Notes under the pieces: model-generated | The model's database searches: none | What the model was told of the DNA's origin: nothing | Seen by the model: the letters and a program-made list of their open reading frames with translations, nothing else | Part shown: piece by piece, positions 30 to 36,692 of the stretch | Numbering within the stretch: the stretch's first letter is position 1 | Layout: every line of letters begins with the position of its first letter | Virus record (IMG/VR): IMGVR_UViG_3300042691_029205 | Coordinates: 14,911-78,910 of that record | DNA length: 64,000 nucleotides | Direction: 5' to 3' (one strand) | From: a virus | Translations under genes and position numbers: made by a program

Positions 30-215
30 ATGGCTACTGAAAATCCTGATTTAGCCCGCGATTTTATTCGCATAGTTCATAAACCTAAAACCAAAGAACA
101 TAGAGAACTTTTTAGCTATATGTTTGGAATTAAATTACTTGAGACAATGGATGAACTTAGAATATCTCTTATAGAAGATAACAAGGAGTTATCAAATGAC
201 TCGGAAGAAGACTAA
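30..215 (+). CDS. hypothetical protein (may be 5'-truncated by window edge)
   Basis: ORF in co-oriented gene array; no motif recognised. Confidence 0.5.
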   Translation: MATENPDLARDFIRIVHKPKTKEHRELFSYMFGIKLLETMDELRISLIEDNKELSNDSEED

Positions 216-232
216 AACAAAACAGATTCAAT

Positions 233-490
233 GTGGTAAAAAAAATACCATGCTTAACTATTGAAGCTGAAAAAGTAATAGATAGCGGCCTGGATAAGAT
301 ATTTACTAAGTTGGCATCTATGAAGTCTGTGGAATATATACAAGTATATCCAGACGACGATATCTATGAACCAGAAGGATACCAAATTGTTCCTCTTAAT
401 ACAGATACCTCGTTTAGAGAACAATTTTTAGAACAAATGGAAAATTTACTTATTGAAAAGTTATATAGATATACGAAAGATAATAAATAA
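233..490 (+). CDS. hypothetical protein
   Basis: ORF, tight packing with neighbours. Confidence 0.55.
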   Translation: MVKKIPCLTIEAEKVIDSGLDKIFTKLASMKSVEYIQVYPDDDIYEPEGYQIVPLNTDTSFREQFLEQMENLLIEKLYRYTKDNK

Positions 491-502
491 GGAAAATACT
501 AT

Positions 503-703
503 ATGTTAAAATCAGAAAAAATAGCGGTTACAACTACTCTTGTATTAATAGTATTAATTACTCTGTTAAATTTTGGCTGGATGTGGATTTGTGCCAGCCA
601 GGAAGCCGCAACGTATAATAAAATAACAGGGACTAGCGTAACCACCTGGGATGCCCTGTGGGTAGAACTAAGAGTAGATTCACAACCAAAAAAGAGAGAT
701 TAA
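503..703 (+). CDS. small membrane protein
   Basis: AGGA RBS; N-terminal hydrophobic helix. Confidence 0.65.
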   Translation: MLKSEKIAVTTTLVLIVLITLLNFGWMWICASQEAATYNKITGTSVTTWDALWVELRVDSQPKKRD

Positions 704-705
704 TA

Positions 706-891
706 ATGTTCGCCAACTGTCAAAGCGAGTATGCTTATTTTTGTAACCTATCTGATGAAGAAAAGTTTCTTCTAATGAAGGAAATGGCCGACCATCTTAT
801 AGATTTAGAGTCTATTCACTGGTCAAACAAAGAACCTGGATATTACTGGAGTTGTTCGGGAGCTAAGTTGGGAGTAGAAGATGAAAGTTAA
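706..891 (+). CDS. hypothetical protein
   Basis: ATG at 706 follows upstream stop (TAATAATG). Confidence 0.6.
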   Translation: MFANCQSEYAYFCNLSDEEKFLLMKEMADHLIDLESIHWSNKEPGYYWSCSGAKLGVEDES

Positions 892-1087
892 GAAACTCAT
901 TAATATATTAAATATCTACTCCAAAAATCTAAAAGTTTATAAGGCCGCTGATGACGAAGGAAACTCCTTCCAAGAACTATACGAAGGTTCTATTGGTATC
1001 TTGTATAAGAATCTGGATACCGGAGATATAGTTGGTGAATGTGACATTGAAGATGACGGAAATTACGAAGAGATTCTTGTACTCTAA
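881..1087 (+). CDS. hypothetical phage protein
   Basis: GGAG RBS; MKVKKLI...DDEGNSF pattern typical of small phage proteins. Confidence 0.65.
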   Translation: MKVKKLINILNIYSKNLKVYKAADDEGNSFQELYEGSIGILYKNLDTGDIVGECDIEDDGNYEEILVL

Positions 1088-1104
1088 AAATAAGCAGCGT
1101 AGCT

Positions 1105-1920
1105 ATGGCATTTTGTTTTATTGGTAGTTATCCGTTGTATTGTCTTACTGGTGGTAAAATTCCATATAAAGACATTGATGTATTGACAGATAATATTGAA
1201 CATGCTAAACATTACATTCTTACTGAATATAAACTAGGCGAAGCTAAAATTGAGTATCACCTAGCCACAGGCGAAATGTTGGAGTTTTTATACGATAACC
1301 CTACATATCCACCATTAAATGAACTTTTAACTCTTAAACTAAGCCACATGCAATGGGATATTAACTGGAAAAAACACGCAGAACAAGCAGTTTTACTAAT
1401 GAGTTCTTACGGATGTACTCCTGATATATCTTTGTTTTACTCTTTCTCACGATACTGGAAAAAACACCACGGAGATAATAAAAAACACATTACACTAAAC
1501 AAGGAAAACTACGAGTTTTTTGACAATGGTGTAACCTATAAATTTGTCCACGATGATCTGCACGAAGCGGTCAAACATAAAAAACACCCGATGTATTGGT
1601 ATATCAAGGAAGATAAAAACTCCGCAAAAACTAGCGACTCACTACTTAACAAATTGAGTCCGCAGGATAAAATATTGTTATGCAGAGAAGAAATGTATGT
1701 CGTTGCCCTGGAACGCTTTATAATTCCCAGCAATTTTACATGTGATCCAGTGGTAGCTTGTCGGAGAGCCTTATATAAATTGTGTACCTCGATGACTAAG
1801 GGTTTATTTTGTCAGACGATTTTGTTTAATTTACACCATCTTTGGAATCCAGATTTAGACTTTATTTATAAGTTTAATCGGGCTTATTTTAATAATCAAT
1901 TAACACTAGCACAAGGATAA
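1105..1920 (+). CDS. nucleotidyltransferase-like phage protein (Pol beta-type GS...DxD)
   Basis: FIGS...KDIDV at N-terminus; LKLSH, HDDLHE, EEMYVVALER motifs recalled from a conserved large-phage family. Confidence 0.6.
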   Translation: MAFCFIGSYPLYCLTGGKIPYKDIDVLTDNIEHAKHYILTEYKLGEAKIEYHLATGEMLEFLYDNPTYPPLNELLTLKLSHMQWDINWKKHAEQAVLLMSSYGCTPDISLFYSFSRYWKKHHGDNKKHITLNKENYEFFDNGVTYKFVHDDLHEAVKHKKHPMYWYIKEDKNSAKTSDSLLNKLSPQDKILLCREEMYVVALERFIIPSNFTCDPVVACRRALYKLCTSMTKGLFCQTILFNLHHLWNPDLDFIYKFNRAYFNNQLTLAQG

Positions 1921-1923
1921 CGT

Positions 1924-2262
1924 ATGAGTACGCTTAAAGATTTTAAGTCTGTTTTAGATGAATTAGAAGTTAGCGTTTCGGACTTTCTAAACGACTTTGA
2001 GTATGAAGACTATTCACATGCTCCAGAAGACAAGGAACAGGAATACAAGGATTTACTAGCAAGTTGTGAATCTGTATCTGTTGGAAGTCATTATGACGGG
2101 AAAGTATACGACATTATTTTCAAATGGAAAGATATCTTTATTCGTGGGTCTGGTTGGTATTCTTCATGGGGTGATTCTAGTCACGAAGACTATTTAGAAG
2201 AAGTAGTACCAGTAGAAAAAACAATAATTCAATATGTAAATAAAAACAATAAGAAAGGTTAA
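1924..2262 (+). CDS. acidic hypothetical protein, paralog of 2271..2600
   Basis: DIIFKW...GWYSSW...EVVPVEKTIIQY. Confidence 0.75.
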   Translation: MSTLKDFKSVLDELEVSVSDFLNDFEYEDYSHAPEDKEQEYKDLLASCESVSVGSHYDGKVYDIIFKWKDIFIRGSGWYSSWGDSSHEDYLEEVVPVEKTIIQYVNKNNKKG

Positions 2263-2270
2263 GTATCACT

Positions 2271-2600
2271 ATGGACGAATTACTTTCAGAACTAGATAAG
2301 TGGAATATCAACGTAGCAGATATGTTGAAATATATAAATCAAGAAGATTGGGAAGACCCAGATTTAGATGATTTTGATGAAAACGAATGGGAAAATTTTA
2401 TAGGGTCTTTTGAGCTAATAGATAGCGGCTTTAAAGGAGATGGTCAGTTGTTTGATATAATCTTTAGATACAAAGACAAGTATTTTAAAGGTTATGGTAA
2501 GTATTCATCTTGGGACTCAACTAGATACAATAGTGATTTAGTAGAAGTGTTTCCAAAACAGGTTACTATTACCGAATACGTGGAACAAGAAGACTTATAA
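2271..2600 (+). CDS. acidic hypothetical protein, paralog of 1924..2262
   Basis: DIIFRY...GKYSSW...EVFPKQVTITEY. Confidence 0.75.
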   Translation: MDELLSELDKWNINVADMLKYINQEDWEDPDLDDFDENEWENFIGSFELIDSGFKGDGQLFDIIFRYKDKYFKGYGKYSSWDSTRYNSDLVEVFPKQVTITEYVEQEDL

Positions 2601-3574
2601 TGACTCTTAAACAAATACAACTATTGATAAAGAACCAGAATGCTTGGGATTTATTTGGTTCTGATATAGATAGCCGCCTTAAAGAACTTTTAGTCGGTTG
2701 TCACCCTGATCGTTTTGAAGATGAAAAAGATAAAGAACTAGCTCTATCCCTATCAAAACAGCTATCCTTATTAGCGGAGAAAGCTAGAGAGCCTCGTTTG
2801 TCAATCTTGGACTATTTATTCGTCAAGGATATTTGTACCGGCGACTCTTCTTATGTTCGTCTGTTTGAAAAAGCAGGGAAAAAGTATATATTCAAAAGCC
2901 CGCTTTCCGATGGGGTTAAGAAGCTAGTCGGGACTGAATTTAATCTAACTAAAGACTTAGTGAGTAAGTCTACTGGTCAGGTTTTTGAGAAGTTTTTTAG
3001 AAAGCCGGTCGAGATTATAATCGACGCTAAAAATAAAGACTATCACTGTGTATATGAATATACAGATGGTTTGATTTCAGTGGCCGATTTGATTAATATG
3101 TTTCCTAGCGGCCTAGATGGTCGTCATATTGTATGGATAACACGTAGAGTATTAGCCGCCCTAGCTTATTTACATTCTCAAGATATTTGTCATAATGCAC
3201 CTACGCCAGATCATTTACTTGTAGAGTATAAGGGTCATGGTTTAGTATTGGCTGGGCTGCTGCATTCTACAAAAACCGGAGAAAAACCACCTGTTATTCC
3301 TGCTAAATATACTGATATATATCCTGATAAATGGGTCAAGGACATTAAAAAAGCCAGTAGCGGGCTAGACATTTATCTAGCAATCAGTTCAATGCTTAAA
3401 CTTGCTGGCATAAATTGTCATACTCGAATTAAGAATTTTCTCAAGGGGGTTCAGCTTGAGAGCTTGACAAACCCACAATCGGGAATTATAATACATGATG
3501 AGCTTGGTGATTTGGCAAAGTCTTTATACGGGAAACCGAAATTTTTTGAATTGGAGCTAATTAATGAAACTTAG
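2600..3574 (+). CDS. J-domain-like (HPD) N-terminus fused to a protein-kinase-fold domain, probably a pseudokinase
   Basis: GCHPDRF; kinase elements YIFKS, TEF, ALAYLHSQDICHNAPTPDHLLV; HRD replaced by HNA and no DFG. Confidence 0.75.
   Translation: MTLKQIQLLIKNQNAWDLFGSDIDSRLKELLVGCHPDRFEDEKDKELALSLSKQLSLLAEKAREPRLSILDYLFVKDICTGDSSYVRLFEKAGKKYIFKSPLSDGVKKLVGTEFNLTKDLVSKSTGQVFEKFFRKPVEIIIDAKNKDYHCVYEYTDGLISVADLINMFPSGLDGRHIVWITRRVLAALAYLHSQDICHNAPTPDHLLVEYKGHGLVLAGLLHSTKTGEKPPVIPAKYTDIYPDKWVKDIKKASSGLDIYLAISSMLKLAGINCHTRIKNFLKGVQLESLTNPQSGIIIHDELGDLAKSLYGKPKFFELELINET
3464..3492 (+). promoter_or_regulatory. sigma70-type promoter (intragenic)
   Basis: TTGACA-17 nt-TATAAT perfect consensus. 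Confidence 0.8.
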
Positions 3575-3800
3575 AAAATGGATACTACATCAATTAGATG
3601 AAATGTTAGAGTGTATTAAATACGCTAGAACAGATTATATTAGTAGTCAATTAACACCTATTGGACCACCAGTAGAAAAACAATTTACTTCGGTTCGTTC
3701 TACAATAAGAGCAGAAAAAGCACTATGTAAAATAGAATCAATAGTAAAAGCAATTAAATCTTTACTTACACCAGAAAAAATCTTTACCAAAGGACAATAA
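3564..3800 (+). CDS. hypothetical protein
   Basis: GGAG RBS, overlaps upstream stop. Confidence 0.65.
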   Translation: MKLRKWILHQLDEMLECIKYARTDYISSQLTPIGPPVEKQFTSVRSTIRAEKALCKIESIVKAIKSLLTPEKIFTKGQ

Positions 3801-3802
3801 AT

Positions 3803-4774
3803 ATGGGAACATCAAATTATTCAGCCGATCTTTATAACCACAAGGCGGTTCTACGAGCTAAAACAGCCACGCCTGTATTTGCTCACTCTGCTGCTGTTAG
3901 CTCTGGAAAGGCAGCAAGAGCTACACATGATAGCTTAAATCCAGTCAAATTCACTAATAAAATTCGTGAAAGTCGAGACTCAGCAGAACACCCGAATTCA
4001 CTAGCTATTGCGGTAGCCTTCGATGTGACTGGTTCTATGGGTGGTGTGCCTAAAACAGTACAAAGCAAACTTAATACGCTAATGAGTTTGTTACTGAAAA
4101 AGGGCTATGTGGAAGACCCCCATATTATGCCTGCTGCTTTTGGTGATTCATATTGCGACGACGGGCCAATTCAAGTTGGTCAGTTTGAAGCGGGTAATGA
4201 GGTGGAAGATCATCTTACTAATATCTGGTTAGAAGGTGGTGGTGGAGGCCAAGTTAGTGAGTCGCCAGGACTGTTTCTGTATTACATGGCAAATTATACC
4301 TCAATTGACTGCTTTGAAAAACGCGGCAAAAAGGGCTATATTTTCATTATTACGGATGAAAAGTCACACCCTGTTTCTAAAGAACATATTAAGGAATTTC
4401 TTGGAGTGGACACTGAAAAAGACTACTCGTTCCAAGAGGTTTTAGATATGGCTCGTACCAAGTATAATGTATTTGTTATTATGCCTAATTTAACGTGTCA
4501 CTATAATGACTCACAAGTTAATAACTTCTGGAAGTCGCATTTAGGCGAGAATTTTCTCAAGTTAGACGATCCTGATACTGTAGCTGAATTGATTGCCTCA
4601 ACAATTGGACTCTGTGAGGGTAATGTTGATAACGATCAATTAATAGATGATTTAACCGATGCTGGTTTATCGAAGAATTCTATTGATTCAGTAACAAAAA
4701 CCCTATCTACAGTCACTACTAATACAGCAATCTCGAATAAAAAGTATAGTGGGACTGGTTTAAAACCACTATAA
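3803..4774 (+). CDS. von Willebrand factor A (vWA) domain protein
   Basis: MIDAS-type DVTGSMG, GGGGG..ES, IITDE. Confidence 0.85.
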   Translation: MGTSNYSADLYNHKAVLRAKTATPVFAHSAAVSSGKAARATHDSLNPVKFTNKIRESRDSAEHPNSLAIAVAFDVTGSMGGVPKTVQSKLNTLMSLLLKKGYVEDPHIMPAAFGDSYCDDGPIQVGQFEAGNEVEDHLTNIWLEGGGGGQVSESPGLFLYYMANYTSIDCFEKRGKKGYIFIITDEKSHPVSKEHIKEFLGVDTEKDYSFQEVLDMARTKYNVFVIMPNLTCHYNDSQVNNFWKSHLGENFLKLDDPDTVAELIASTIGLCEGNVDNDQLIDDLTDAGLSKNSIDSVTKTLSTVTTNTAISNKKYSGTGLKPL

Positions 4775-4798
4775 AACTCAATTTGAGTTATCGATTCT

Positions 4799-4826
4799 AG
4801 CCCCTTGAAAGAGGGACTTGTTTTTT
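4799..4826 (+). terminator. possible intrinsic terminator
   Basis: CCCTT-GAAA-GAGGG hairpin followed by TGTTTTTT after vWA gene. Confidence 0.45.
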
Positions 4827-4851
4827 GCCTGCGGTAAGCTATAATAAAGAC

Positions 4852-5208
4852 ATGAAATACGAAATAAAAGTTAAATATTTATTATCTGGTACTAAAGATT
4901 GGCAATTTAAAACTTTAACAGTTAAGGACACGGATAATTTTTGTAAAATCATAGATCAAATTAACGAGTTATTTACAGGTGTTCTGCATTTCTTATCAGG
5001 TAGGAAATTAGAAAATGATAATTTATCGCTCTGTGCAACAAAGAGTGGATGTACTGGATGTATAGAAGACGAAACATATAAACATGGATATCGTTTTAAC
5101 TACGACGATGGGACAACGGATGCTGGAGAATATAGAAAGAAAGGAATGGTAATATATCATTATGCAGATAAAATTAAAAACCCCGAAAAATCATCACCTA
5201 CCTCGTAA
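4852..5208 (+). CDS. hypothetical protein
   Basis: ORF; ATG start at 4852 preferred. Confidence 0.55.
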   Translation: MKYEIKVKYLLSGTKDWQFKTLTVKDTDNFCKIIDQINELFTGVLHFLSGRKLENDNLSLCATKSGCTGCIEDETYKHGYRFNYDDGTTDAGEYRKKGMVIYHYADKIKNPEKSSPTS

Positions 5209-5347
5209 GGTTGTGATCGAACTAAGTGTCAATGAGTTTAATTTACTACATAATGCAATAGATTCGATAGAACTAGACGATCCAGACGAACATGATTTTA
5301 TTACATTGTTACAAGAAGAATTAGAGGTAATTCATGGAGATTTGTAG
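5162..5347 (+). CDS. hypothetical protein
   Basis: overlapping ORF in array. Confidence 0.5.
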   Translation: MQIKLKTPKNHHLPRKVVIELSVNEFNLLHNAIDSIELDDPDEHDFITLLQEELEVIHGDL

Positions 5348-5549
5348 AGGTTCGATTTTTTTAAAATCGGCTTGTGGTAGATGTGAAAAATGTCAAAATG
5401 ATATTGTCGCTATAGCTAAAAGCCTAAATTATTATCTACATAAAACAGACGAAGAAACTAGAGAAGTTGCTTGTAGCGAAGTTACAAATAATATCTGCTT
5501 ACACTGTTTTGGTACTGATAAACCTTGTTATTGCTGGAGAGACGAGTAA
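5334..5549 (+). CDS. small Cys-rich (Zn-binding) protein
   Basis: CGRCEKC and CLHC..PCYC; GAGG RBS. Confidence 0.65.
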   Translation: MEICRGSIFLKSACGRCEKCQNDIVAIAKSLNYYLHKTDEETREVACSEVTNNICLHCFGTDKPCYCWRDE

Positions 5550-5833
5550 TGTCAATGTCAACATATGTTTATGGTGTTCGTGATTTAGATGGTATGTTTG
5601 CTAAAATGATGAGGGTTAAGAAAGTCTGCGATACAGCAGGCATCAGTTATCCAAAAGAGGTAACTGAATATTTTAAAGACCCAGGGGAAAACGAAGAAAC
5701 AATAAGAAGAGAAATGGAAACTCTTGAAATCAAATTCGAGAGAAACAGTCGAAATGGTGAATATATATATGAAGTACAATTAGAAGATTTACCTAAAGAA
5801 GTGAAGGCTATTAGATTTATTAATTCATGGTAA
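5549..5833 (+). CDS. hypothetical phage protein
   Basis: TAATG coupling; MSMSTYVYG...IRFINSW. Confidence 0.7.
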   Translation: MSMSTYVYGVRDLDGMFAKMMRVKKVCDTAGISYPKEVTEYFKDPGENEETIRREMETLEIKFERNSRNGEYIYEVQLEDLPKEVKAIRFINSW

Positions 5834-5860
5834 TAGGGGTTTCACCCATATAACCCAAGG
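5834..5860. repeat. intergenic GGGG-loop-CCC-spacer-CCC motif, copy 1
   Basis: TAGGGG TTTCA CCCA TATAA CCCAAGG; similar to 23011 and 40681. Confidence 0.6.
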
Positions 5861-5871
5861 AAAAAAGAACA

Positions 5872-6048
5872 ATGTACGATATAATAGAAGCATTAACAAA
5901 AGAAGTAAATCAATCTCTTTGGAATGCTTTTTATACAAATGAATGGTCAAAGTTTATAGAAACAGTAATTCCAAAGATGAAAACTATATCTGATTTAATG
6001 GAAGAAGATCAAGAATGGTGGGAAGATTACAACGAACCAGCAAAATAA
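5872..6048 (+). CDS. 58-aa hypothetical protein (below ORF-track cutoff)
   Basis: AAGGA RBS; MYDIIEALTKEV...EPAK* translated by hand. Confidence 0.6.
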   Translation: MYDIIEALTKEVNQSLWNAFYTNEWSKFIETVIPKMKTISDLMEEDQEWWEDYNEPAK

Positions 6049-6058
6049 AGTATTAAAT

Positions 6059-6424
6059 ATGCCATACGATAGACCTCCTATTAAACTTACGATGTTAATA
6101 TTAGAGCAGGGTCATCACGAAGGTGCTAGATTAGCATGTATCCCACTTTTTGTTTATCATTATGATTTAACAAGAGAAAAGCTAATTAGTGTTTTTTTAG
6201 ATAATATTAAATTAGTGTTACAAGAAACGAATAATAAACAAACGGTATATAATTGGTTACTAGATCAATTTAACTTGGAATCTCATGAAACATGTGGAGA
6301 CAAAGTTTGGGATCATTTAGATTCAATGGGAATTAAATTTATCCCTGATTTAGATATAGATATTAAAATAGACAACATTGTATTATTAGACGTTTACTCA
6401 CTAGAGGATGATTATAATGACTAA
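6059..6424 (+). CDS. hypothetical protein
   Basis: ORF in array. Confidence 0.6.
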   Translation: MPYDRPPIKLTMLILEQGHHEGARLACIPLFVYHYDLTREKLISVFLDNIKLVLQETNNKQTVYNWLLDQFNLESHETCGDKVWDHLDSMGIKFIPDLDIDIKIDNIVLLDVYSLEDDYND

Positions 6425-7742
6425 GGCTTTTATCGTCGTAGGACTTCAATTTGGTGATGAAACTAAGGGAGCAACAACAGATTACCTATGTTCGTTGTTT
6501 CCAGATCAGCGTAAGCTCGTAGTACGCTATAGCGGTGGCTCTCAGGCTGGTCATTCCGTAGAACACAACGAAAGTCGCCATATCTTTAATAACTTCGGCA
6601 GCGGCTCTTTACAAGACGTTCCAACTTATTGGGATCGTCATTGTGTATTAAATCCCTACAGCCTGTTTTATGAAACAGAGAAATTAGTTCAATTAGGTTT
6701 AAAGCCAAAGATTAATATTCATCAACAATGTTTAGTCTCAACAATCTATCATCAGATTTTTAACCAGTATAGAGAAAGAAAACGTGGAGACTTAAAACAT
6801 GGTACTTGTGGTCATGGAATTGGTGAAACACGCTCTTATTACTTAAAATACGGCCAAGACGCTATCTTTTATCAAGATTGTTTTTTATCTCCGCAAGTTT
6901 TAGAAAACAAGCTCTATTTACTGAGAGAGCGACTACTTGAAGAAAGTAATTATGGAAAAGAGCTATGCGAAGAACTGTATAGCGTTGATATTTTTCAAGC
7001 TAAGTATGTTATAGAACAAATAGTTTTTCAACAGAAGACAGGGAATAATTATATAACACCAATTAAAGAGCACGATCTATTTGTTTTTGAAGGTGCTCAA
7101 GGTATTTTACTAGATCAGAATTACGGATTTCACCCACATACTACATGGACAGATACTACGCCACGTAGGGCGTTGGAGTTATGTAGAGAATGGGGTATTG
7201 AAGATGTTAAGATACTTGGTCTAACACGTACTAATACTACTAGACATGGTAATGGCCCGCTACCTACTTATAATCCAGAACTAACGGATGAATATCCAGA
7301 CCAAACGAATACACATAATGAGTTCCAAGGTAACTTTAGAATTGGCGATTTAGACCTATCTATGTTGGAATACTCAAATGAGATTATTCGACGTAGTTGT
7401 GGACGAGGTTTAGATGGTTTAGTAGTTAGTCATCTGGATCAACATCAAGATGGTTTGTATAAGACAAAAACATTGAACAAGACAGAATATAAAAAATATT
7501 TCTGTCGAGAATTAAAATATCAAGGCTCTCTATTAAAACAGGAGGCATTGACATATGAACTGTCTTTATTACACGATAAGACTAGATACAACTACCACGA
7601 TAGTCTAAGATGTGATAAAATTTCTTTATACAATAAACTACAGTCTATTTTTCAATGCCCTGTGGTCATCGAATCTGATGGGGCGACAAGGAATCATAGA
7701 CAAACAACGAAAGAGGGGCAGGAAATATTATGTATATCATAA
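6417..7742 (+). CDS. divergent adenylosuccinate synthetase (PurA)-like ligase
   Basis: GLQFGDETKG, VRYSGGSQAGH, GHGIG, FEGAQGILLD, TTRHGNGP; GAGG RBS. Confidence 0.85.
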   Translation: MTKAFIVVGLQFGDETKGATTDYLCSLFPDQRKLVVRYSGGSQAGHSVEHNESRHIFNNFGSGSLQDVPTYWDRHCVLNPYSLFYETEKLVQLGLKPKINIHQQCLVSTIYHQIFNQYRERKRGDLKHGTCGHGIGETRSYYLKYGQDAIFYQDCFLSPQVLENKLYLLRERLLEESNYGKELCEELYSVDIFQAKYVIEQIVFQQKTGNNYITPIKEHDLFVFEGAQGILLDQNYGFHPHTTWTDTTPRRALELCREWGIEDVKILGLTRTNTTRHGNGPLPTYNPELTDEYPDQTNTHNEFQGNFRIGDLDLSMLEYSNEIIRRSCGRGLDGLVVSHLDQHQDGLYKTKTLNKTEYKKYFCRELKYQGSLLKQEALTYELSLLHDKTRYNYHDSLRCDKISLYNKLQSIFQCPVVIESDGATRNHRQTTKEGQEILCIS

Positions 7743-7960
7743 TGATTATTGCAATAATTTTATGGATAGGCATTGGATTAAGGTGTTGGTTTTATGAAAC
7801 AATATTGATGAACGAATATCGATTTGCTAAAAAATGTATAACAATGGCCGATTTACTTAGTATTCCTGCATATATGGTACTTGGCGTATTTTTTAGTATT
7901 GTAGATTTATTAGGTAAATTTAGTAAAATTGTAATTTGGAAGGAGAAAAAGAATGATTGA
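7730..7960 (+). CDS. small membrane protein
   Basis: two hydrophobic segments. Confidence 0.55.
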   Translation: MYIIMIIAIILWIGIGLRCWFYETILMNEYRFAKKCITMADLLSIPAYMVLGVFFSIVDLLGKFSKIVIWKEKKND

Positions 7961-8570
7961 TTTAAATAAATATTGGGTAGAGTGTATTAATCATAGTACA
8001 TTTATATTGAAAATATCACATTGTCGAGTGGATAAATGGGATCGTCGAACTGGTGGATATTACATATGTGAAACAAGTGATTATCCAGGTAAAGTATTTA
8101 TATCAGTATCAGACAAACTTCCGAAAAACTGCACAAAATGGAGTCATACTAGTTACACACTTTTTAGTGTGGTAGCCGATCCTATTATTATTGATGTTGA
8201 TAATAATTTAACTGTTAAAACGGAGAACCCTGTCATGTTTATTAAGTACATTCGCGTTAATGACGGTAATAACAATAAATATGGTTCACCATCTGTCGGT
8301 CGGCCTATTGGTTGTATTGCTATGACTTCTAGTGGCGATTATGGTATATCGTTACATAATAAAACTGATATGTTTGATAAGCGTACCAGTAAGGCTTATG
8401 CTGTATCTAGAGCGATTGGTATGGAAAAACCCATTCGTAAAATTCCTACTAAAACGGTACTGCATCCTCACACTGGAAATCCAATTATGTTAGATTGCCT
8501 GATTGACGATATGGTTAGCCACCTACAAACAAAAGTGAAAAAGATTAAAGACTTAAAAGCCAGCGGCTAA
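7953..8570 (+). CDS. hypothetical protein
   Basis: AGGAG RBS; 205 aa. Confidence 0.65.
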   Translation: MIDLNKYWVECINHSTFILKISHCRVDKWDRRTGGYYICETSDYPGKVFISVSDKLPKNCTKWSHTSYTLFSVVADPIIIDVDNNLTVKTENPVMFIKYIRVNDGNNNKYGSPSVGRPIGCIAMTSSGDYGISLHNKTDMFDKRTSKAYAVSRAIGMEKPIRKIPTKTVLHPHTGNPIMLDCLIDDMVSHLQTKVKKIKDLKASG

Positions 8571-8577
8571 TTTAGAA

Positions 8578-8585
8578 CGGTGTAT
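8578..8585 (+). promoter_or_regulatory. putative phage late-promoter motif CGGTGTA
   Basis: recurs upstream of 8623, 11183, 14894, 47174 and 50814 (variant before 46483). Confidence 0.55.
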
Positions 8586-8622
8586 ATTTCTAGTAGAGGA
8601 CACACAGGAGTTTCTACTAGAA

Positions 8623-9129
8623 ATGGCTATTACAACTAATTGTATATTTAAATCTGCTATTTATTGGCAGCAAAAAGATACACAAAATCTAGGTTTTTTA
8701 AATGATACCGGCGAAATCGGTATTACTCTACCACTATCTACGGGCAGCGGTAATTCTCAAGTAAATCAAGTGTTTTACGAGAGCGGAACCCTGCCCTCCG
8801 GTCAATCGGTTGAATATGATTTAACTGATTTAACCCGCACTATCTTAAATTCTGATGTTCCTATTACCTTTGCTAAAGTCAAGGGTATTTCTGTAAAAAA
8901 TAAGGGAACTAGCAGCGGCCACATTATATCTATTTCTGTTACCGGCTCCAATGCTTTTGAAGATTTATTGGAAGATGGTACGTCTTTGCGTGTTTATCCT
9001 GGGGCTGCTCAGACGTTTTTCCGCCCTATAGATGGTTGGACTATCACTTCTAGCGGCTGTATCTTTCAGATTAACGACCTCTATTCTTACGGTGTACCCT
9101 ACGAAATTTCAGTAGTAGGAGTAGAATAA
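8623..9129 (+). CDS. putative virion structural protein, paralog 1
   Basis: Ser/Thr/Gly-rich beta composition; shares KGISVKN...PG...GW...YEI pattern with next two genes. Confidence 0.65.
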   Translation: MAITTNCIFKSAIYWQQKDTQNLGFLNDTGEIGITLPLSTGSGNSQVNQVFYESGTLPSGQSVEYDLTDLTRTILNSDVPITFAKVKGISVKNKGTSSGHIISISVTGSNAFEDLLEDGTSLRVYPGAAQTFFRPIDGWTITSSGCIFQINDLYSYGVPYEISVVGVE

Positions 9130-17069: not shown

Positions 17070-17870
17070 ATGCTTAATTTTATTCTGCAATCCAATTTAA
17101 TCGAAAATGAAAACTTTGGATTAGTAGCAGAGAAATTAGGTCATAATATATTACGATATAACGATTTAAGTGAATATCTATCTATAGATAACGGTCTTCC
17201 AACTTATGTTCGCTGCTCACTAGATCATTATCTTTCTTACTGGCGAAAGAACAGCCCAAATCCTGGTGTTTGTTTTGAAGCCTCCAACTTTAAATACCTA
17301 GAATACCAGCAATACTGGAACGGCTATCTACTTAATAACAATTTCATCGTTTGCCCGATATCTAATTTAACAGAAGAGTGGTATAATGAGTTTATTCATG
17401 GTGATATGTTTATACGGCCTAATTCTGGCTGTAAATCTTTTACTGGCCAAACAATTTTTAAATATAAAGACCTGAAACAAATTATTGATTTATACCGGCC
17501 ATTACCAAGCGAACTAGCTATTTTCGCACCGGCTCGTCCAATTAGTAATGAAGCTCGCCTAGTTGTGGGGATTGACAAAGATGAAAAACCTGTTATACTA
17601 GCAGGAAGTATGTATCGTATTGATGGGAATGTTCAAAATGAGCGGATTAATAAGGATAGCCGATACTGGAAGTTCGGCCAAAAGGCGGCTGAACAAGTCC
17701 TAGAGAAGTATGGAAATCCTCCGTCTGAATTGTTTACACTTGATGTTTGTTCTGAAAGATGGCGGGATGAACTATATATAGTTGAACTTAACTCTTTTGG
17801 ATGTGCTGGTTTATATGATTGTGAAATAGAGTCGATTATTCATTTCATGGAAAAACAATGGACAACTTAA
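17070..17870 (+). CDS. ATP-grasp protein, R2K/DUF4343-like
   Basis: FIRPNSGCKSFTG, EAR, LDVC, VELNSFGCAGLY. Confidence 0.8.
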   Translation: MLNFILQSNLIENENFGLVAEKLGHNILRYNDLSEYLSIDNGLPTYVRCSLDHYLSYWRKNSPNPGVCFEASNFKYLEYQQYWNGYLLNNNFIVCPISNLTEEWYNEFIHGDMFIRPNSGCKSFTGQTIFKYKDLKQIIDLYRPLPSELAIFAPARPISNEARLVVGIDKDEKPVILAGSMYRIDGNVQNERINKDSRYWKFGQKAAEQVLEKYGNPPSELFTLDVCSERWRDELYIVELNSFGCAGLYDCEIESIIHFMEKQWTT

Positions 17871-25805: not shown

Positions 25806-26093
25806 ATGCGTTTTGAAACACTAGAATCGACACCAAGTAAAGACCACCCATATTTAGATGCAGATCGTGCTTTGTTTTATGTGTATGATACAGTCAAGCA
25901 CTCAAAATCACTAGGAGCATACACAAGGCGGGATTTAGCAGATAAAATTACCGATCAAAAAAATAAAGAATATCTCGAAACTTGGTTTGCAGAAGTAAAA
26001 CATCAGGACTTAAAAAATGGCACTATCGATCAAGAAGTTACAGAAAACAGCCTCTCAGAGGACGTTATTACTCAACAAGCAGGGGACTTATAA
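25806..26093 (+). CDS. hypothetical protein
   Basis: ORF downstream of promoter. Confidence 0.55.
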   Translation: MRFETLESTPSKDHPYLDADRALFYVYDTVKHSKSLGAYTRRDLADKITDQKNKEYLETWFAEVKHQDLKNGTIDQEVTENSLSEDVITQQAGDL

Positions 26094-26352
26094 GTGTAAG
26101 CCGGAAGATTTTGGGTTTTTTGGCCTAGCTCTAGCTGGAGAAGTCGGCGAAACCTGCAACCTTTTAAAAAAGGTGCTACGTGGCACAAAACAACTTAATC
26201 TAACTACACTTGATGCTCTAGCTAGTGAATTAGCTGACTGTCAAATGTATTTAGTTTTGTTAGCTGCCTCGCTAAATATTAACCTTGAGGAAGCTGTAAT
26301 TGTGAAATTTAACGAACGTAGTAAAGACTTAGGGATAGATATTACATTATGA
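26017..26352 (+). CDS. MazG-like nucleotide pyrophosphohydrolase
   Basis: LAGEVGETCNLLKK...ELADC...KFN. Confidence 0.8.
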   Translation: MALSIKKLQKTASQRTLLLNKQGTYKCKPEDFGFFGLALAGEVGETCNLLKKVLRGTKQLNLTTLDALASELADCQMYLVLLAASLNINLEEAVIVKFNERSKDLGIDITL

Positions 26353-26846
26353 AAAAATTAATTCTCATTCGCTCTGCTTCTGGTGGAGGTAAGAGCTATC
26401 TAGCTAAACAAATCGCCTATGAAGCCGTTATAGATAATAAGTCCGTTGTTATTCATAATACTGATTCTGTTTGGATGAGCAAGACTAATTTTACAGATGA
26501 AGCCTATTACTTTGACTTTAATGTTTTATATCAGGCTCACCAAATCAACCAAGCTAAAACGGCTATCTCTATGGAACGCGGAATTAACGTAGTTATCATA
26601 GACAATACGAATACCACCCTGAAAGAAGTCAAGGTCTATGTTGATTTAGCTGTCAAATACGGCTACACAGTAGAAGTAGTGCGGCCCAATACACCCTGGT
26701 TTGGTAATATTGATGAACACTTCGCTAGAAACACGCATAATGTTCCTAAAGACGTTATCCAAAAACAGATGGATCGATTGAGTAGATCGCCTGACTCTGA
26801 AGTTTATGAATACTATAATAGTATAAGAGATTGCAATGTCTCCTAA
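26349..26846 (+). CDS. P-loop kinase, polynucleotide kinase/N4BP2-like (AAA_33)
   Basis: SASGGGKS, VIIDNTN, RNTHNVP. Confidence 0.8.
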   Translation: MKKLILIRSASGGGKSYLAKQIAYEAVIDNKSVVIHNTDSVWMSKTNFTDEAYYFDFNVLYQAHQINQAKTAISMERGINVVIIDNTNTTLKEVKVYVDLAVKYGYTVEVVRPNTPWFGNIDEHFARNTHNVPKDVIQKQMDRLSRSPDSEVYEYYNSIRDCNVS

Positions 26847-27666
26847 ATGGTTAATTGAAAAAGATACATTAGAATGTACAGAAAAGCTAATTGAATCTTT
26901 GGTTAAATTTAATATTGAATATCAAGAGATTCATAGTTCTGTTCGTTTTAAAGATGATTTTCTTTCTATTTTTAAACCGTATGATTGTGTAATCTTCTAT
27001 GGTTCATTGGAACTCGCTAAAAGAATTCGTAAAAAAGCTAAGTGGGTTCCAGGGGTGTTTTATAATGTCGAACAATATAATTGCACATATTACTATGCTA
27101 AATTAGGCAAGTATTTATTAAATGAAAATTATATTATGATGCCTTATGGCGAATTAAGCCGCCGTAAAGAATTTTTATATGAAATGTTCGGAGAAGATAG
27201 AGCAGTATTTATTCGTCCTAATCGAGGTGACAAAATCTTTACTGGTAAGGTAGTATATAAAGAAAACTTTGAAAAAGATATTCGATTATTTAACTTTTAC
27301 CAAATGGCAGACGAAGAATTAGTTATAGTTGCCAGACCTATTAATATTACTTGTGAATGGAGATTTGTTGTAGTAAACCAAGAGGTTATTACTGGTAGCG
27401 TGTATAAAGAAAATGATCGTGTTGGCAGTAAAGCTGGCTATGATATTAAAGCATTTGAATTAGCAAGTAAAATTGCGAAGGAATATAATCCTGATCCGGC
27501 ATATGTAATAGATATTTGTTTGACTAAAACTGGCGATTATCGCTTAATGGAAGTTGGATGTTTTAGTTGTGCAGGAATGTACTTATGTGATACAGATATT
27601 ATTGTAGAGAAAGTTTCAGACGTTGTATTAAAAGAATGGAGAAATTACAATGAAGGTTGTTGCTAG
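26836..27666 (+). CDS. ATP-grasp protein, R2K/DUF4343-like (second copy)
   Basis: FIRPNRGDKIFTG, EWRF, IDIC, MEVGCFSCAGMY. Confidence 0.8.
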   Translation: MSPKWLIEKDTLECTEKLIESLVKFNIEYQEIHSSVRFKDDFLSIFKPYDCVIFYGSLELAKRIRKKAKWVPGVFYNVEQYNCTYYYAKLGKYLLNENYIMMPYGELSRRKEFLYEMFGEDRAVFIRPNRGDKIFTGKVVYKENFEKDIRLFNFYQMADEELVIVARPINITCEWRFVVVNQEVITGSVYKENDRVGSKAGYDIKAFELASKIAKEYNPDPAYVIDICLTKTGDYRLMEVGCFSCAGMYLCDTDIIVEKVSDVVLKEWRNYNEGCC

Positions 27667-30269: not shown

Positions 30270-31577
30270 ATGATTACTAAAATTTACCCAGGTTCTATCA
30301 ATTATACCTGCACTGTTGTAAAATTACCGCACAAGCAAGTTATTCAGGGTTTAGACAACCTTGTTAATGTTTGTATATTTGGTAATAACTGTCTAATTTC
30401 TAAAGACTCTGATGAAAATAAGCTCTGGCTGTTCTTTCCTTCTGGTACTATATTATCAGAGAAATTTTTGGCCGCAAATAACTTATATCGTCACTCTGAG
30501 CTAAACGCGGATAAGACCAAAAAGGGCTTCTTTGAAGATAACGGTCGTGTTAAGTCTGTTAAGTTTAAGGGTGTAGTATCTACCGGATTTTGTATTCCCG
30601 TTTCTGCATTAGGAGAGATGGGACTTGTATATACAGATTTGAATGTTGGTGACGAGTTTAATGAGATTGATAATGAATTTATCTGTAAAAAGTTTATAAA
30701 TCGCCACTTAGAATCATCTAAGTCTCCAAAGATTAAGACTGGTCGTGTATTAGATGAAGTAGTTAATTCACGTTTAGTACCTGAGCATGACGATTCATCT
30801 CATTTAATGCGTAATACTCGAAAGATGGATAGAAATCCAATTGTAGCTGTAACACATAAAATGCACGGCACAAGTTTACGGGTGTTTAAAGCACCAGTAA
30901 AGCGTCCATTACGTTGGTATGAACGCCTGTATGCATATTTTGGCGGAAAAATACAAGATGAAGTCTATGACTATGTTGTAGGTTCTCGTCGTGTAATTAA
31001 GTCTATTGGATTTAAGACTTTGAGTGGTAAAGAACACTTCTACTCCGAGGATTTGTGGTCAAAAGCAGCAAAAGAATACTTTGATGGCAAATTGTTCGAT
31101 GGAGAAGCTGTTTTTTGTGAAATCGTAGGTAAGGACTATACGAAAAAGGCAATACAACCTGGATATACTTATGGCTTTGAAACGCCTAAGATTTTTATCT
31201 ATCGTATTGCTAATATTAATCATCAAGGTGTAGAAGTTGATCTTCCATATGCTCAGATGAAAATTAGAGCAGATCAATTAGGTATACCTGTTTGCCAAGA
31301 GTTATTTTATGGTCGTTTTAATGATTTTTTAGAGCAATTTAAAGCTGAAGGAAATACATTAGACGAAAAAATAGAAGATGTTTTCTATAAAAAGCTACTT
31401 GATAAACCTGATCCTGTTGACCCAACTGTGGTTAATGAGGGTTATGTTGTGCGTATAGATGATATTTATCCAAAACCAGAAATGTTAAAGGCTAAATCTC
31501 CTTTGTTTATCAAGGGCGAATCGGATTTAGCAGACAAAGGTAACTTAGATATAGAGGATCAACAAAGTGAAGAATGA
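30270..31577 (+). CDS. ATP-dependent RNA ligase (Rnl2/DRB0094-like, N-terminal OB-type domain)
   Basis: motif I KMHGTS, CEIVG, FIYRI, EGYVVR, LKAKS. Confidence 0.85.
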   Translation: MITKIYPGSINYTCTVVKLPHKQVIQGLDNLVNVCIFGNNCLISKDSDENKLWLFFPSGTILSEKFLAANNLYRHSELNADKTKKGFFEDNGRVKSVKFKGVVSTGFCIPVSALGEMGLVYTDLNVGDEFNEIDNEFICKKFINRHLESSKSPKIKTGRVLDEVVNSRLVPEHDDSSHLMRNTRKMDRNPIVAVTHKMHGTSLRVFKAPVKRPLRWYERLYAYFGGKIQDEVYDYVVGSRRVIKSIGFKTLSGKEHFYSEDLWSKAAKEYFDGKLFDGEAVFCEIVGKDYTKKAIQPGYTYGFETPKIFIYRIANINHQGVEVDLPYAQMKIRADQLGIPVCQELFYGRFNDFLEQFKAEGNTLDEKIEDVFYKKLLDKPDPVDPTVVNEGYVVRIDDIYPKPEMLKAKSPLFIKGESDLADKGNLDIEDQQSEE

Positions 31578-36092: not shown

Positions 36093-36692
36093 GTGGATTA
36101 TAAGTCAAATATTGATAAAAACAAAGAACGAATTTACGAAGCAATTTCTAATATTGATCCAACTTATGCTATTAAAGTTTTAGCGGACACATTATTTAGA
36201 AATTATCCACAGTTTGAAATTTGGACCGGCTCTGGTTCCTATAATTCTCATCATTATGGAAAAGGTGGCTTATTACAACATACTAGAGAGGTTCTAGAAC
36301 TATGTATTCAAAATTATGGGTATTTAACTTCAGACGAACCAATTAATAATTTTCACGATCTAAAAATACTTGTTCTTGGTGCTCTATATCATGACGTTGG
36401 TAAGATTTGGGATTATGGGCCAAAAGATGGTGGTTTAAATTGGGAAAATACAAACCATAAAAAAGAAATTCATCATGTTCCTCGATCATATCTAGAGTGG
36501 AACAGGGTGGCTACAGAACTTAGTTTATCCGAAGAAGTAACCGATGAGGTTTCTCATTTAATACTATCTCATCATGGTTGTAAAGAATGGGGTTCGCCAG
36601 TAGAGCCACGTAATAAATTAGCATGGATATTACATCTTTCTGATAATATGTCGGCTAAATTCAACTGTCCAATTCACATACCACAAAAATAA
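36093..36692 (+). CDS. HD-domain hydrolase, YhaM-like (no OB domain)
   Basis: HHYGKGGLLQHT, YHDVGK, ILSHHG..EWGSP, LHLSDNMSA. Confidence 0.85.
   Translation: MDYKSNIDKNKERIYEAISNIDPTYAIKVLADTLFRNYPQFEIWTGSGSYNSHHYGKGGLLQHTREVLELCIQNYGYLTSDEPINNFHDLKILVLGALYHDVGKIWDYGPKDGGLNWENTNHKKEIHHVPRSYLEWNRVATELSLSEEVTDEVSHLILSHHGCKEWGSPVEPRNKLAWILHLSDNMSAKFNCPIHIPQK

Follow-up and report, generated by a model that had tools for sequence, protein, structure and literature searches.

A cassette of three genes that recurs in the same order and orientation in large phages, by the hundreds, and in bacterial chromosomes was identified in a virus contig, and its obligate core is a gene pair encoding a vWA protein and a paralog of the adenylosuccinate synthetase PurA. 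The DNA in question is a stretch of 64,000 nucleotides (hereafter the window, at its full length), namely positions 14911-78910 of the 78.9-kb IMG/VR virus record IMGVR_UViG_3300042691_029205, which has a CheckV completeness of ~45%; G+C of the window is ~34%, and its + strand carries nearly all genes. The genes are referred to as K (2600-3574), V (3803-4774) and P (6408-7742), and all three lie on the + strand, where a first-pass annotation made from the sequence had placed three co-oriented genes. K is a J-domain fused to a catalytically dead kinase, V is a vWA protein whose N-terminal glycine is invariant, and P is a PurA paralog that is neither PurA nor PurZ. From what is established, which comprises the domain content, the kept and lost residues, the gene linkage, a bacterial operator and the paralogy to purA, we infer the biochemistry of the module: in our tentative reading, held with slightly less than even confidence, V and P make up a nucleotide-amine ligase module with a DnaK coupling through K and a link to NAD+/ADP-ribose stress. 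A search of open-access papers and preprints gave no description of the cassette, which agrees with the earlier view that the trio is uncharacterised.

A single P sequence used as query recovered no related loci and an alignment of the P family (A1) was required. It yielded the P-seeded sample of 160 loci, 80 from viruses and 80 from bacteria, each taken with flanks of 10 kb. V lies beside P in 152 of these 160 loci, and of the eight loci in which P stands alone, six are cut by a contig end. The remaining gene orders are K-V-P (95 loci), V-P (46), V-P-K (nine) and P-V (two), with K detected in 104 loci by tblastn, which undercounts diverged copies. The same picture emerged from the reverse direction: among 79 V-seeded viral loci, P is found just downstream of V in 77 and K is present in 65, and the order K-V-P on one strand was seen in 58. 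Records of V and P are also nearly equal in number in cultured phages of Mycobacterium (cluster C; 200 versus 201), Rhizobium (10 versus 10) and Vibrio (6 versus 6), and Mycobacteriophage I3 shows the window's gene order, with the kinase gp270, V gp271, a small open reading frame (ORF) and the PurA-like gp273. The gene that precedes V in one K-less Nocardia locus (L114) is unlike K and no diverged copy of it (hhalign probability 0.1%). ORFs in GC-rich loci were called by a simple longest-ORF rule, and one apparently recurrent neighbour family (cluster 2) was discarded as antisense shadow ORFs of GC-rich genes. Taken as a whole, V and P are the obligate core of the cassette and K is a frequent accessory.

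The hosts of the cassette include jumbo-size phages, more than 200 cultured cluster C mycobacteriophages, Rhodococcus, Nocardia, Streptomyces and Planctomycetota. The first-pass annotation had described the trio as operonic in bacteria, and in Actinomycetota and Planctomycetota it does form a tight operon with the same order and orientation, in addition to its presence in many large phages. At the nucleotide level, a megablast of window positions 2000-9000 against phages gave no match. Could three unrelated early genes nevertheless have become adjacent by chance in the window phage? The unconserved small ORFs and the promoter-like and terminator-like sites between the window genes would suit such an explanation, but the searches seeded on P and on V agree in order and orientation, and the loci come from phages and no fewer than two bacterial phyla. 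Chance adjacency is refuted by these linkage counts and retains practically no probability. The first-pass annotation had named co-occurrence at chance level, together with a lack of physical or genetic interaction, as the outcome that would undo its idea of a single system; as to co-occurrence, the neighbourhood of P homologs clearly shows the opposite, V and K being found there beyond chance. As far as linkage is concerned, the idea of one system stands, but only V and P belong to its obligate core, whereas K goes undetected in about one fifth to one third of the loci.

K encodes a protein of 324 aa with two domains. Its homologs were collected from the cassette loci, because a word-seeded search gave only one relative, and an alignment of 67 sequences (A2) served as the basis of an AlphaFold2 (AF2) model with a predicted local distance difference test (pLDDT) score of 94.3. 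The J-domain (residues 1-65; 2600..2794, + strand) was recognised by hhalign, AF2 and Foldseek: with alignment A2, residues 4-64 match the J-domain of E. coli DnaJ with HPD on HPD (probability 95%, E 3e-8), and helices 23-33 and 42-63 flank the HPD tripeptide (residues 35-37) in the model. HPD is retained in 88 of 105 K homologs. The rest of the protein (2795..3574, + strand) is a pseudokinase domain of the eukaryotic-type kinase fold, with an HNA catalytic loop and without the DFG Asp, identified by VIA, profile and PHROG comparisons. The sequence of K in itself shows only a weak likeness to kinases (Pfam Pkinase 16 bits; phrog_3043 'kinase', E 6e-19). The family profile matches CK2 alpha with E 1e-14, and residues 67-310 of the model superimpose on M. 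tuberculosis PknB over 222 residues with Z 22.5 and a root-mean-square deviation of 2.3 Å (VIA). The top Foldseek match of the whole model is 4WB7, a human DnaJB1-PKA fusion with the same two-domain layout.

The conserved residues of K are those of a kinase fold that has lost its catalytic Asp. The beta3 lysine K99 is present in 97 and the alphaC glutamate E113 in 101 of the 105 homologs, and both the catalytic-loop histidine H198 and the alphaF aspartate D257 are present in all 105. In contrast to an active kinase, 91 homologs have Ala at the HRD Asp position and not one of the 105 has Asp there, and the catalytic loop of the window protein reads CHNAPTPDH. At the DFG Asp position 56 homologs have D and 41 have G, the window protein being one with G. 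An HPD J-like domain fused to a kinase fold that lacks the HRD Asp and DFG was also what the first-pass annotation had described, and the hhalign match, the AF2 model with its PknB match and the two altered motifs all agree with that description.

V (3803..4774, + strand) is a protein of 323 aa that resembles vWA and integrin beta-I domains, with the metal-ion-dependent adhesion site (MIDAS) residues D74-x-T76-x-S78 and D185 and an N-terminal tail that begins with Met-Gly; the evidence comes from AF2, VIA, Foldseek and phrog_2971 (E 1e-59). No match was obtained in Pfam, NCBIfam or PDB sequences, and the vWA identity was recognised from the fold alone. In the AF2 model (pLDDT 89.5) the first seven residues are unstructured. 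The 50 best VIA matches belong without exception to vWA or integrin beta-I domains (Z up to 14.8), and Foldseek assigns a vWA fold with probability 1.00. The vWA domains of NorD (NorQ/NorD) and BchD (Mg-chelatase) are among the fold matches. The MIDAS motif DxSxS, here in the form DxTxS, and its distal Asp are present, with D74, T76, S78 and D185 invariant in 152 V sequences, so the MIDAS vWA protein of the first-pass annotation is borne out by both fold and residues.

The N-terminus of V is also conserved. All 152 V sequences taken from the 160 loci have Gly2. In databases, 251 of 268 homologs open with MG as part of the conserved N-terminal motif M-G-[GS]-[SGT]-x-[WY]-S-D-D-x-Y, and most of the 17 exceptions seem to be truncated or to have been given another start. 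No N-terminal fusion was seen among the 150 best relatives of V. Between the low-GC window phage and Actinomadura, V retains 45-50% identity. Two irregular forms were encountered as well. In some cluster C mycobacteriophages (H43, H44, H67-H74) the V match is split into two pieces ~760 bp apart, and in one of them an HNH endonuclease is annotated at that place. Furthermore, a 581-aa V homolog (P0279) has a weak Hint (intein) match from near residue 173, beside the MIDAS GDE strand.

P (6408..7742, + strand) belongs to the PurA superfamily and has the GTP-dependent ligase fold with a replaced aspartate loop, as judged from PF00709, family cut-offs, alignment and tree. Its likely start is the second Met at 6417, where the alignment of the P family begins. 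PF00709 covers the full length of P with 162 bits, but P falls far below the equivalog cut-offs for PurA (141.9 bits versus 402 for NF002223; 115.5 versus 395.55 for TIGR00184), and it reaches only 35.9 bits against the PurZ model NF038379 (cut-off 300), over residues 9-112 only. The divergent adenylosuccinate synthetase of the first-pass annotation is a proper description of its superfamily membership. In comparison with E. coli PurA, the equivalents of the catalytic and GTP-site residues Asp13, Lys16, His41, Gln224 and Asp333 are kept, within the aligned motifs GDETKG, GGSQAGH, FEGAQG and SHLD, and the TRxGxGP segment is also kept. The aspartate loop differs: E. coli GATTGRRRR (GATTGRRRRTGW) is replaced by NEFQGNFRIG in the window P and by the consensus N..N..QG.fR.G across the family, with the equivalents of T300, T301 and R303 lost family-wide and one Arg conserved in the remodelled loop. 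Arg303 of the PurA aspartate loop contacts the aspartate substrate (PMC8342488).

The phylogeny of P also sets it apart from housekeeping PurA. A FastTree tree of 72 rows comprised P rows, 65 of which were a random subsample, and six canonical PurA rows, of which four were usable (L246 and L250, wrongly extracted by the longest-ORF rule, were disregarded). These four make up a clade of their own that has full support and sits on a long branch. The window P groups with Planctomycetota genomes and viral contigs (support 97), and within Actinomycetota the P tree follows taxonomy. Nor is P the housekeeping enzyme of its hosts: in five of five cassette-bearing bacteria a canonical PurA is also encoded, scoring 550-606 bits as compared with 179-209 for P.

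The main ordinary alternative is that P is a working adenylosuccinate synthetase, an auxiliary source of AMP/ATP, for example for NAD+ resynthesis, that would handle aspartate via a different loop while V and K regulate or stabilise it. The retained catalytic Asp and His, P-loop, Q224 and guanine-specific Asp, the 162-bit PF00709 match over the full length and the conserved loop Arg are all compatible with such an enzyme, as is the use of ATP in NAMPT/NMNAT NAD+ salvage, whose genes cluster with the cassette in some phages. Set against it are the score of 142 bits versus a PurA cut-off of 402, the loss of the T300, T301 and R303 equivalents across the family and the canonical PurA that cassette bacteria already own. 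Moreover, the strict pairing with a vWA gene is without parallel among purA genes, and no purB-like lyase occurs among the recurrent neighbours. We judge this explanation unlikely.

P homologs carry a different label in databases. RefSeq names them '2-aminooxy adenylosuccinate synthetase' in mycobacteriophages and rhizobiophages (NC_067270, NC_070967 and others), and phrog_1211, which bears the same name, matches P with E 5e-63. Taken at face value, the label would make P a PurZ-type enzyme that produces the precursor of the 2-aminoadenine (Z) base, and the window contig does encode MazG-like and HD-domain proteins. The PurZ-type label is probably a propagated mis-annotation, because the window P scores 36 bits versus the PurZ cut-off of 300, within the first ~100 residues only, and P is a long bacterial-type PurA homolog. 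Free aspartate is a substrate of PurZ (PMC8342488), whereas the aspartate loop of P is rebuilt. The MazG-like (phrog_229) and HD (YhaM/HDIG-like) genes of the contig are generic and lie 20-30 kb from P, no MazG or HD family is found among the recurrent neighbours in the 160 loci, and the cassette also exists as a chromosomal operon linked to NrtR. With a PurZ score below cut-off and no linked MazZ or DatZ, the Z-genome reading of P was rejected and is extremely improbable.

The genomic context in bacteria points to NAD+ metabolism. One further recurrent neighbour family emerged from ORF clustering, and it combines NUDIX and NrtR winged-helix domains (Pfam). In 71 of 80 bacterial loci such an NrtR-like gene is a co-directional neighbour of the cassette, in keeping with the NUDIX/NrtR regulator that the first-pass annotation had named as a frequent companion. 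In the aligned bacterial copies the Nudix box is degenerate (RRAVTTKLG in actinobacteria, also altered in planctomycetes), and in most viral copies it is intact (REVEEETG). Known NrtR sites are 21-bp palindromes with a core GT-N7-AC, and ADP-ribose releases NrtR from DNA (PMC2330246). A palindrome scan of the loci gave a sharp peak just upstream of the cassette. The pattern TTT[TG]AGTC-N5-GACT[CA]AAA, with up to two mismatches allowed, has 53 sites in 1.5 Mb and occurs in 52 of 80 bacterial loci, once each in 51 and twice in one (L100). In every case the site coincides with the called start of the leading cassette gene or immediately precedes it, this gene being K, or V in K-less Nocardia. The form of the site agrees with that of the published NrtR sites, and the predicted operator for the NrtR-like protein is TTTTAGTC-N5-GACTAAAA. 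Because an NrtR-type site directly precedes the first cassette gene, the bacterial unit can be written as operator-K-V-P-nrtR. NrtR-regulated genes that are uncharacterised, nrtX-nrtY, were listed by Rodionov in 2008, but they are divergent or unlinked, unlike the arrangement of the cassette (PMC2330246, Table 1). In two planctomycete loci another 21-bp palindrome, ATAGTGT-N7-ACACTAT, was seen upstream of V (L087, -1291 from P; L135, -1200 from P); it may be that lineage's own NrtR-type operator.

In phages the regulator is mostly absent, as an NrtR-like gene was found in 10 of 80 viral loci, and NAD+ genes are seen near the cassette instead. Among 49 cassette-bearing viral records searched whole, 13 encode NAMPT, which lies within 10 kb of P in nine of the 13; about one such case would be expected by chance in genomes of 70-512 kb, and some of the nine are interrelated. 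One locus (L014), with NMNAT or NMNAT/Nudix nearby, has the gene order NrtR, NAMPT, V, P, K and then a cytidylyltransferase-like gene. In Rhizobium phage RHph_Y65 (L166), a ComF-like phosphoribosyltransferase (PF15610, 157 bits) and an annotated NMNAT/Nudix gene are situated 3-4 kb upstream, and in Vibrio phage phiKT1024 a NADAR gene lies 1.2 kb upstream of the cassette. The region of RHph_Y65 upstream of V-P (96-4104) also has the look of a second nucleotide-metabolism block, containing a metallophosphoesterase, a hydrolase, the phosphoribosyltransferase and the NMNAT/NUDIX gene. The first-pass annotation had suggested a conflict or host-takeover role; with the NrtR-type operator, NAMPT, NMNAT and NADAR, the genomic context points to NAD+/ADP-ribose metabolism and less to a conflict role of a generic kind.

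How might the three proteins work? P is most likely an active GTP-dependent PurA-type ligase. Its first step would be phosphorylation of a purine nucleotide at the 6-oxo group, and in a second step an amine would displace the phosphate. This amine is probably other than free aspartate, because the amine-binding loop has been rebuilt. V would be the fixed partner of P, in contact with it either as the amine donor or as a metal-dependent (MIDAS) adaptor or activator. K may serve as a dead-kinase scaffold whose J-domain brings host DnaK to the complex. In bacteria the operon is probably induced when ADP-ribose, the product of NAD+ breakdown, builds up, because operator-K-V-P-nrtR lies behind an NrtR-type palindrome. 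Large phages hold the cassette mostly without the regulator, often beside NAMPT and NMNAT, and there the module most likely helps to cope with, or to exploit, nucleotide and NAD+ stress during infection.

Several observations weigh against this composite reading of an NAD+-linked, DnaK-coupled ligase. The first-pass annotation had proposed that P conjugates a nucleotide to a non-aspartate amine, and the replacement of GATTGRRRR by a family-conserved loop fits it, but one Arg stays conserved in the remodelled loop and aspartate may still be used. It had also proposed that the J-domain and vWA proteins recruit DnaK or a target, and for DnaK the retention of HPD gives indirect support; since K is undetected in 46 of 160 P-seeded and 14 of 79 V-seeded loci, however, DnaK coupling cannot be essential. 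With respect to NAD+, some relatives of NrtR control pentose use and not NAD metabolism (PMC2330246), and ADP-ribose is the effector that we infer for this NrtR paralog. Thirty-six of the 49 cassette-bearing phages are without NAMPT, and the window's own contig (~45% complete) has no match for NAMPT, NUDIX, NMNAT, Macro (PF01661) or HSP70. In addition, the three window genes are set apart and may be transcribed separately, given a promoter-like site at 3464 and a terminator-like site at 4802.

A more specific version of the ligase reading, which we regard as rather improbable, is that V itself is the amine substrate of P. Gly2, after removal of Met, would replace aspartate and attack the 6-phosphorylated purine nucleotide, and V would thereby gain an N6-linked AMP-like (or GMP-derived) N-terminal group, a protein 'purinylation' that has not been described before. 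Loading, release or remodelling of the modified V would fall to K together with DnaK, and through the NrtR-type operator the event would be linked to NAD+ breakdown. The conservation of Gly2, the unstructured tail, the absence of N-terminal fusions, the loss of the aspartate-carboxylate residues in P and the V-P pairing all fit such a reaction.

The same proteins could also be arranged into a device for targeting other proteins. Protein ligands of MIDAS vWA domains are usually bound through their acidic residues, and adaptors of the vWA type are partners of chaperone ATPases. In a counter-defence or defence role, the MIDAS of V would grip an acidic motif of a target such as an NAD+-degrading effector, K would bring DnaK for unfolding or dismantling it, and P would mark or inactivate the target with a nucleotide. 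Apart from the acidic-motif binding usual for such domains and the presence of NorD and BchD among the fold matches of V, the kept HPD of the J-domain, the NAD-themed neighbourhood and the patchy distribution of V, which was found in 13 of 301 evenly sampled genomes of the class surveyed, speak for this device. Against PADLOC-DB 2.0, however, there was no significant match, with two weak kinase-domain matches for K (E 0.0035 and 0.0048) and none for V or P. The neighbours of the cassette in Rhodococcus are ordinary metabolic genes and form neither a prophage nor a defence island, the P tree follows taxonomy within Actinomycetota, and V, with 45-50% identity across phyla, is unusually conserved for an arms-race protein. 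Such a device is quite unlikely, and the NAD+-linked ligase module is the reading that we prefer.

Compared with its relatives, the window cassette is loosely built. The first-pass annotation had noted small ORFs between the three genes, and these are present and not conserved elsewhere. Between K and V there is one ORF of 78 aa (3564..3800, + strand), with no match in Pfam or PHROG and no tblastn match in the 160 related loci. Between V and P, ~1.6 kb (4825..6424, + strand) is occupied by six small ORFs of 127, 61, 71, 102, 58 and 121 aa, the three larger of which (127, 102 and 121 aa) have no Pfam or PHROG match; by tblastn in the 160 loci, the ORF at 5525-5833 was matched in one viral locus and the other five in none. 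The V-P gap elsewhere has a median of 9 nt and exceeds 500 nt in 17 of 150 loci, so the window layout is a minority form. A perfect match to a sigma-70-type promoter (TTGACA-17-TATAAT, 12/12) is found in the 3' end of K upstream of V (3464..3492, + strand), but promoter-like sites are overall no more frequent in this region than expected by chance, and the match is a lead only. Directly after V, a terminator-like hairpin is followed by a T-run (4802..4815, + strand; a consensus match only). From these signals, V may be its own transcription unit in the window phage.

Other genes of the window were recorded in passing. A DUF7275 protein (PF23940, 150 bits; phrog_6944) is encoded at 1105-1920, just upstream of the cassette, and shows no conserved adjacency elsewhere. 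Further along, a MazG-like pyrophosphatase (26017-26352), a polynucleotide-kinase-like ATPase (26349-26846), an RNA ligase (phrog_968; 30270-31577) and a YhaM/HDIG-like HD protein (36093-36692) look like an RNA-repair or nucleotide-handling set that is unrelated to the cassette. The family phrog_7313, of unassigned function, has two paralogs in the window, at 17070-17870 (E 2e-26) and 26836-27666 (E 2e-54).

The cassette is a widespread module without an assigned function, as the V family alone comprises 2,358 cluster representatives at 50% identity (E up to 0.001). Its three parts are new in combination: a PurA-type ligase whose acceptor site has been rebuilt, a vWA protein in which the N-terminal Gly is invariant, and a J-domain pseudokinase. 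Through the bacterial operator, which is of the ADP-ribose-sensing kind, the cassette belongs with current work on immunity by NAD+ depletion and on NAD+ reconstitution by phages. A new amine substrate of P would mean new nucleotide chemistry and possibly a new protein modification. Tractable hosts are available in M. smegmatis with the cluster C phages and in Rhodococcus erythropolis.

Comparison with known systems helps to delimit what is shared and what is particular to the cassette. P has in common with PurA (EC 6.3.4.4; PF00709; E. coli 1ADE/1KJX) the full-length fold, the P-loop GD(E)xKG with Asp13, His41, Gln224, the TRxGxGP segment and Asp333; unlike PurA, it is an extra paralog beside the housekeeping purA, is paired with a vWA gene and has a family-specific aspartate loop. 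PurZ of the Z-genome phages (S-2L and PhiVC8, with MazZ and DatZ) is likewise a phage-borne PurA homolog with changed substrate use. PurZ, however, is a short enzyme of archaeal type whose substrates are dGMP, free aspartate and ATP (PMC8342488), whereas P is long, of bacterial type and also encoded in bacterial chromosomes, where an NrtR-type operator precedes the cassette. Phage NAD+ reconstitution by NARP1 (Adps and Namat), NARP2 (NAMPT and NMNAT) and NARP3 (PnuC and NadR) resembles the cassette in being phage-borne and linked to products of NAD+ breakdown, but K, V and P are not among the published components of these pathways, and a PurA-type ligase offers no assignable NAD+-forming chemistry.

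Two further systems resemble the cassette in their use of a vWA protein. The MoxR-class NorQ/NorD and BchI/BchD are pairs of a chaperone-ATPase and a vWA adaptor, and the likeness is one of logic only, in that a MIDAS vWA gene is tied to an enzyme and to the recruiter of an ATP-driven chaperone. Unlike in these pairs, the J-domain of the cassette implies Hsp70/DnaK and not an AAA+ MoxR protein, it is carried on a pseudokinase, and the client would be a PurA-like ligase. The TerY-P triad, which Anantharaman, Iyer and Aravind are said to have described in 2012, reportedly consists of the vWA protein TerY, a Ser/Thr kinase and a PP2C phosphatase, and in both cases a vWA gene adjoins a protein-kinase-fold gene in a conserved bacterial operon. 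In contrast to that triad, the cassette is without a phosphatase, its kinase fold is without the catalytic Asp and carries a J-domain, and its third gene encodes a PurA paralog.

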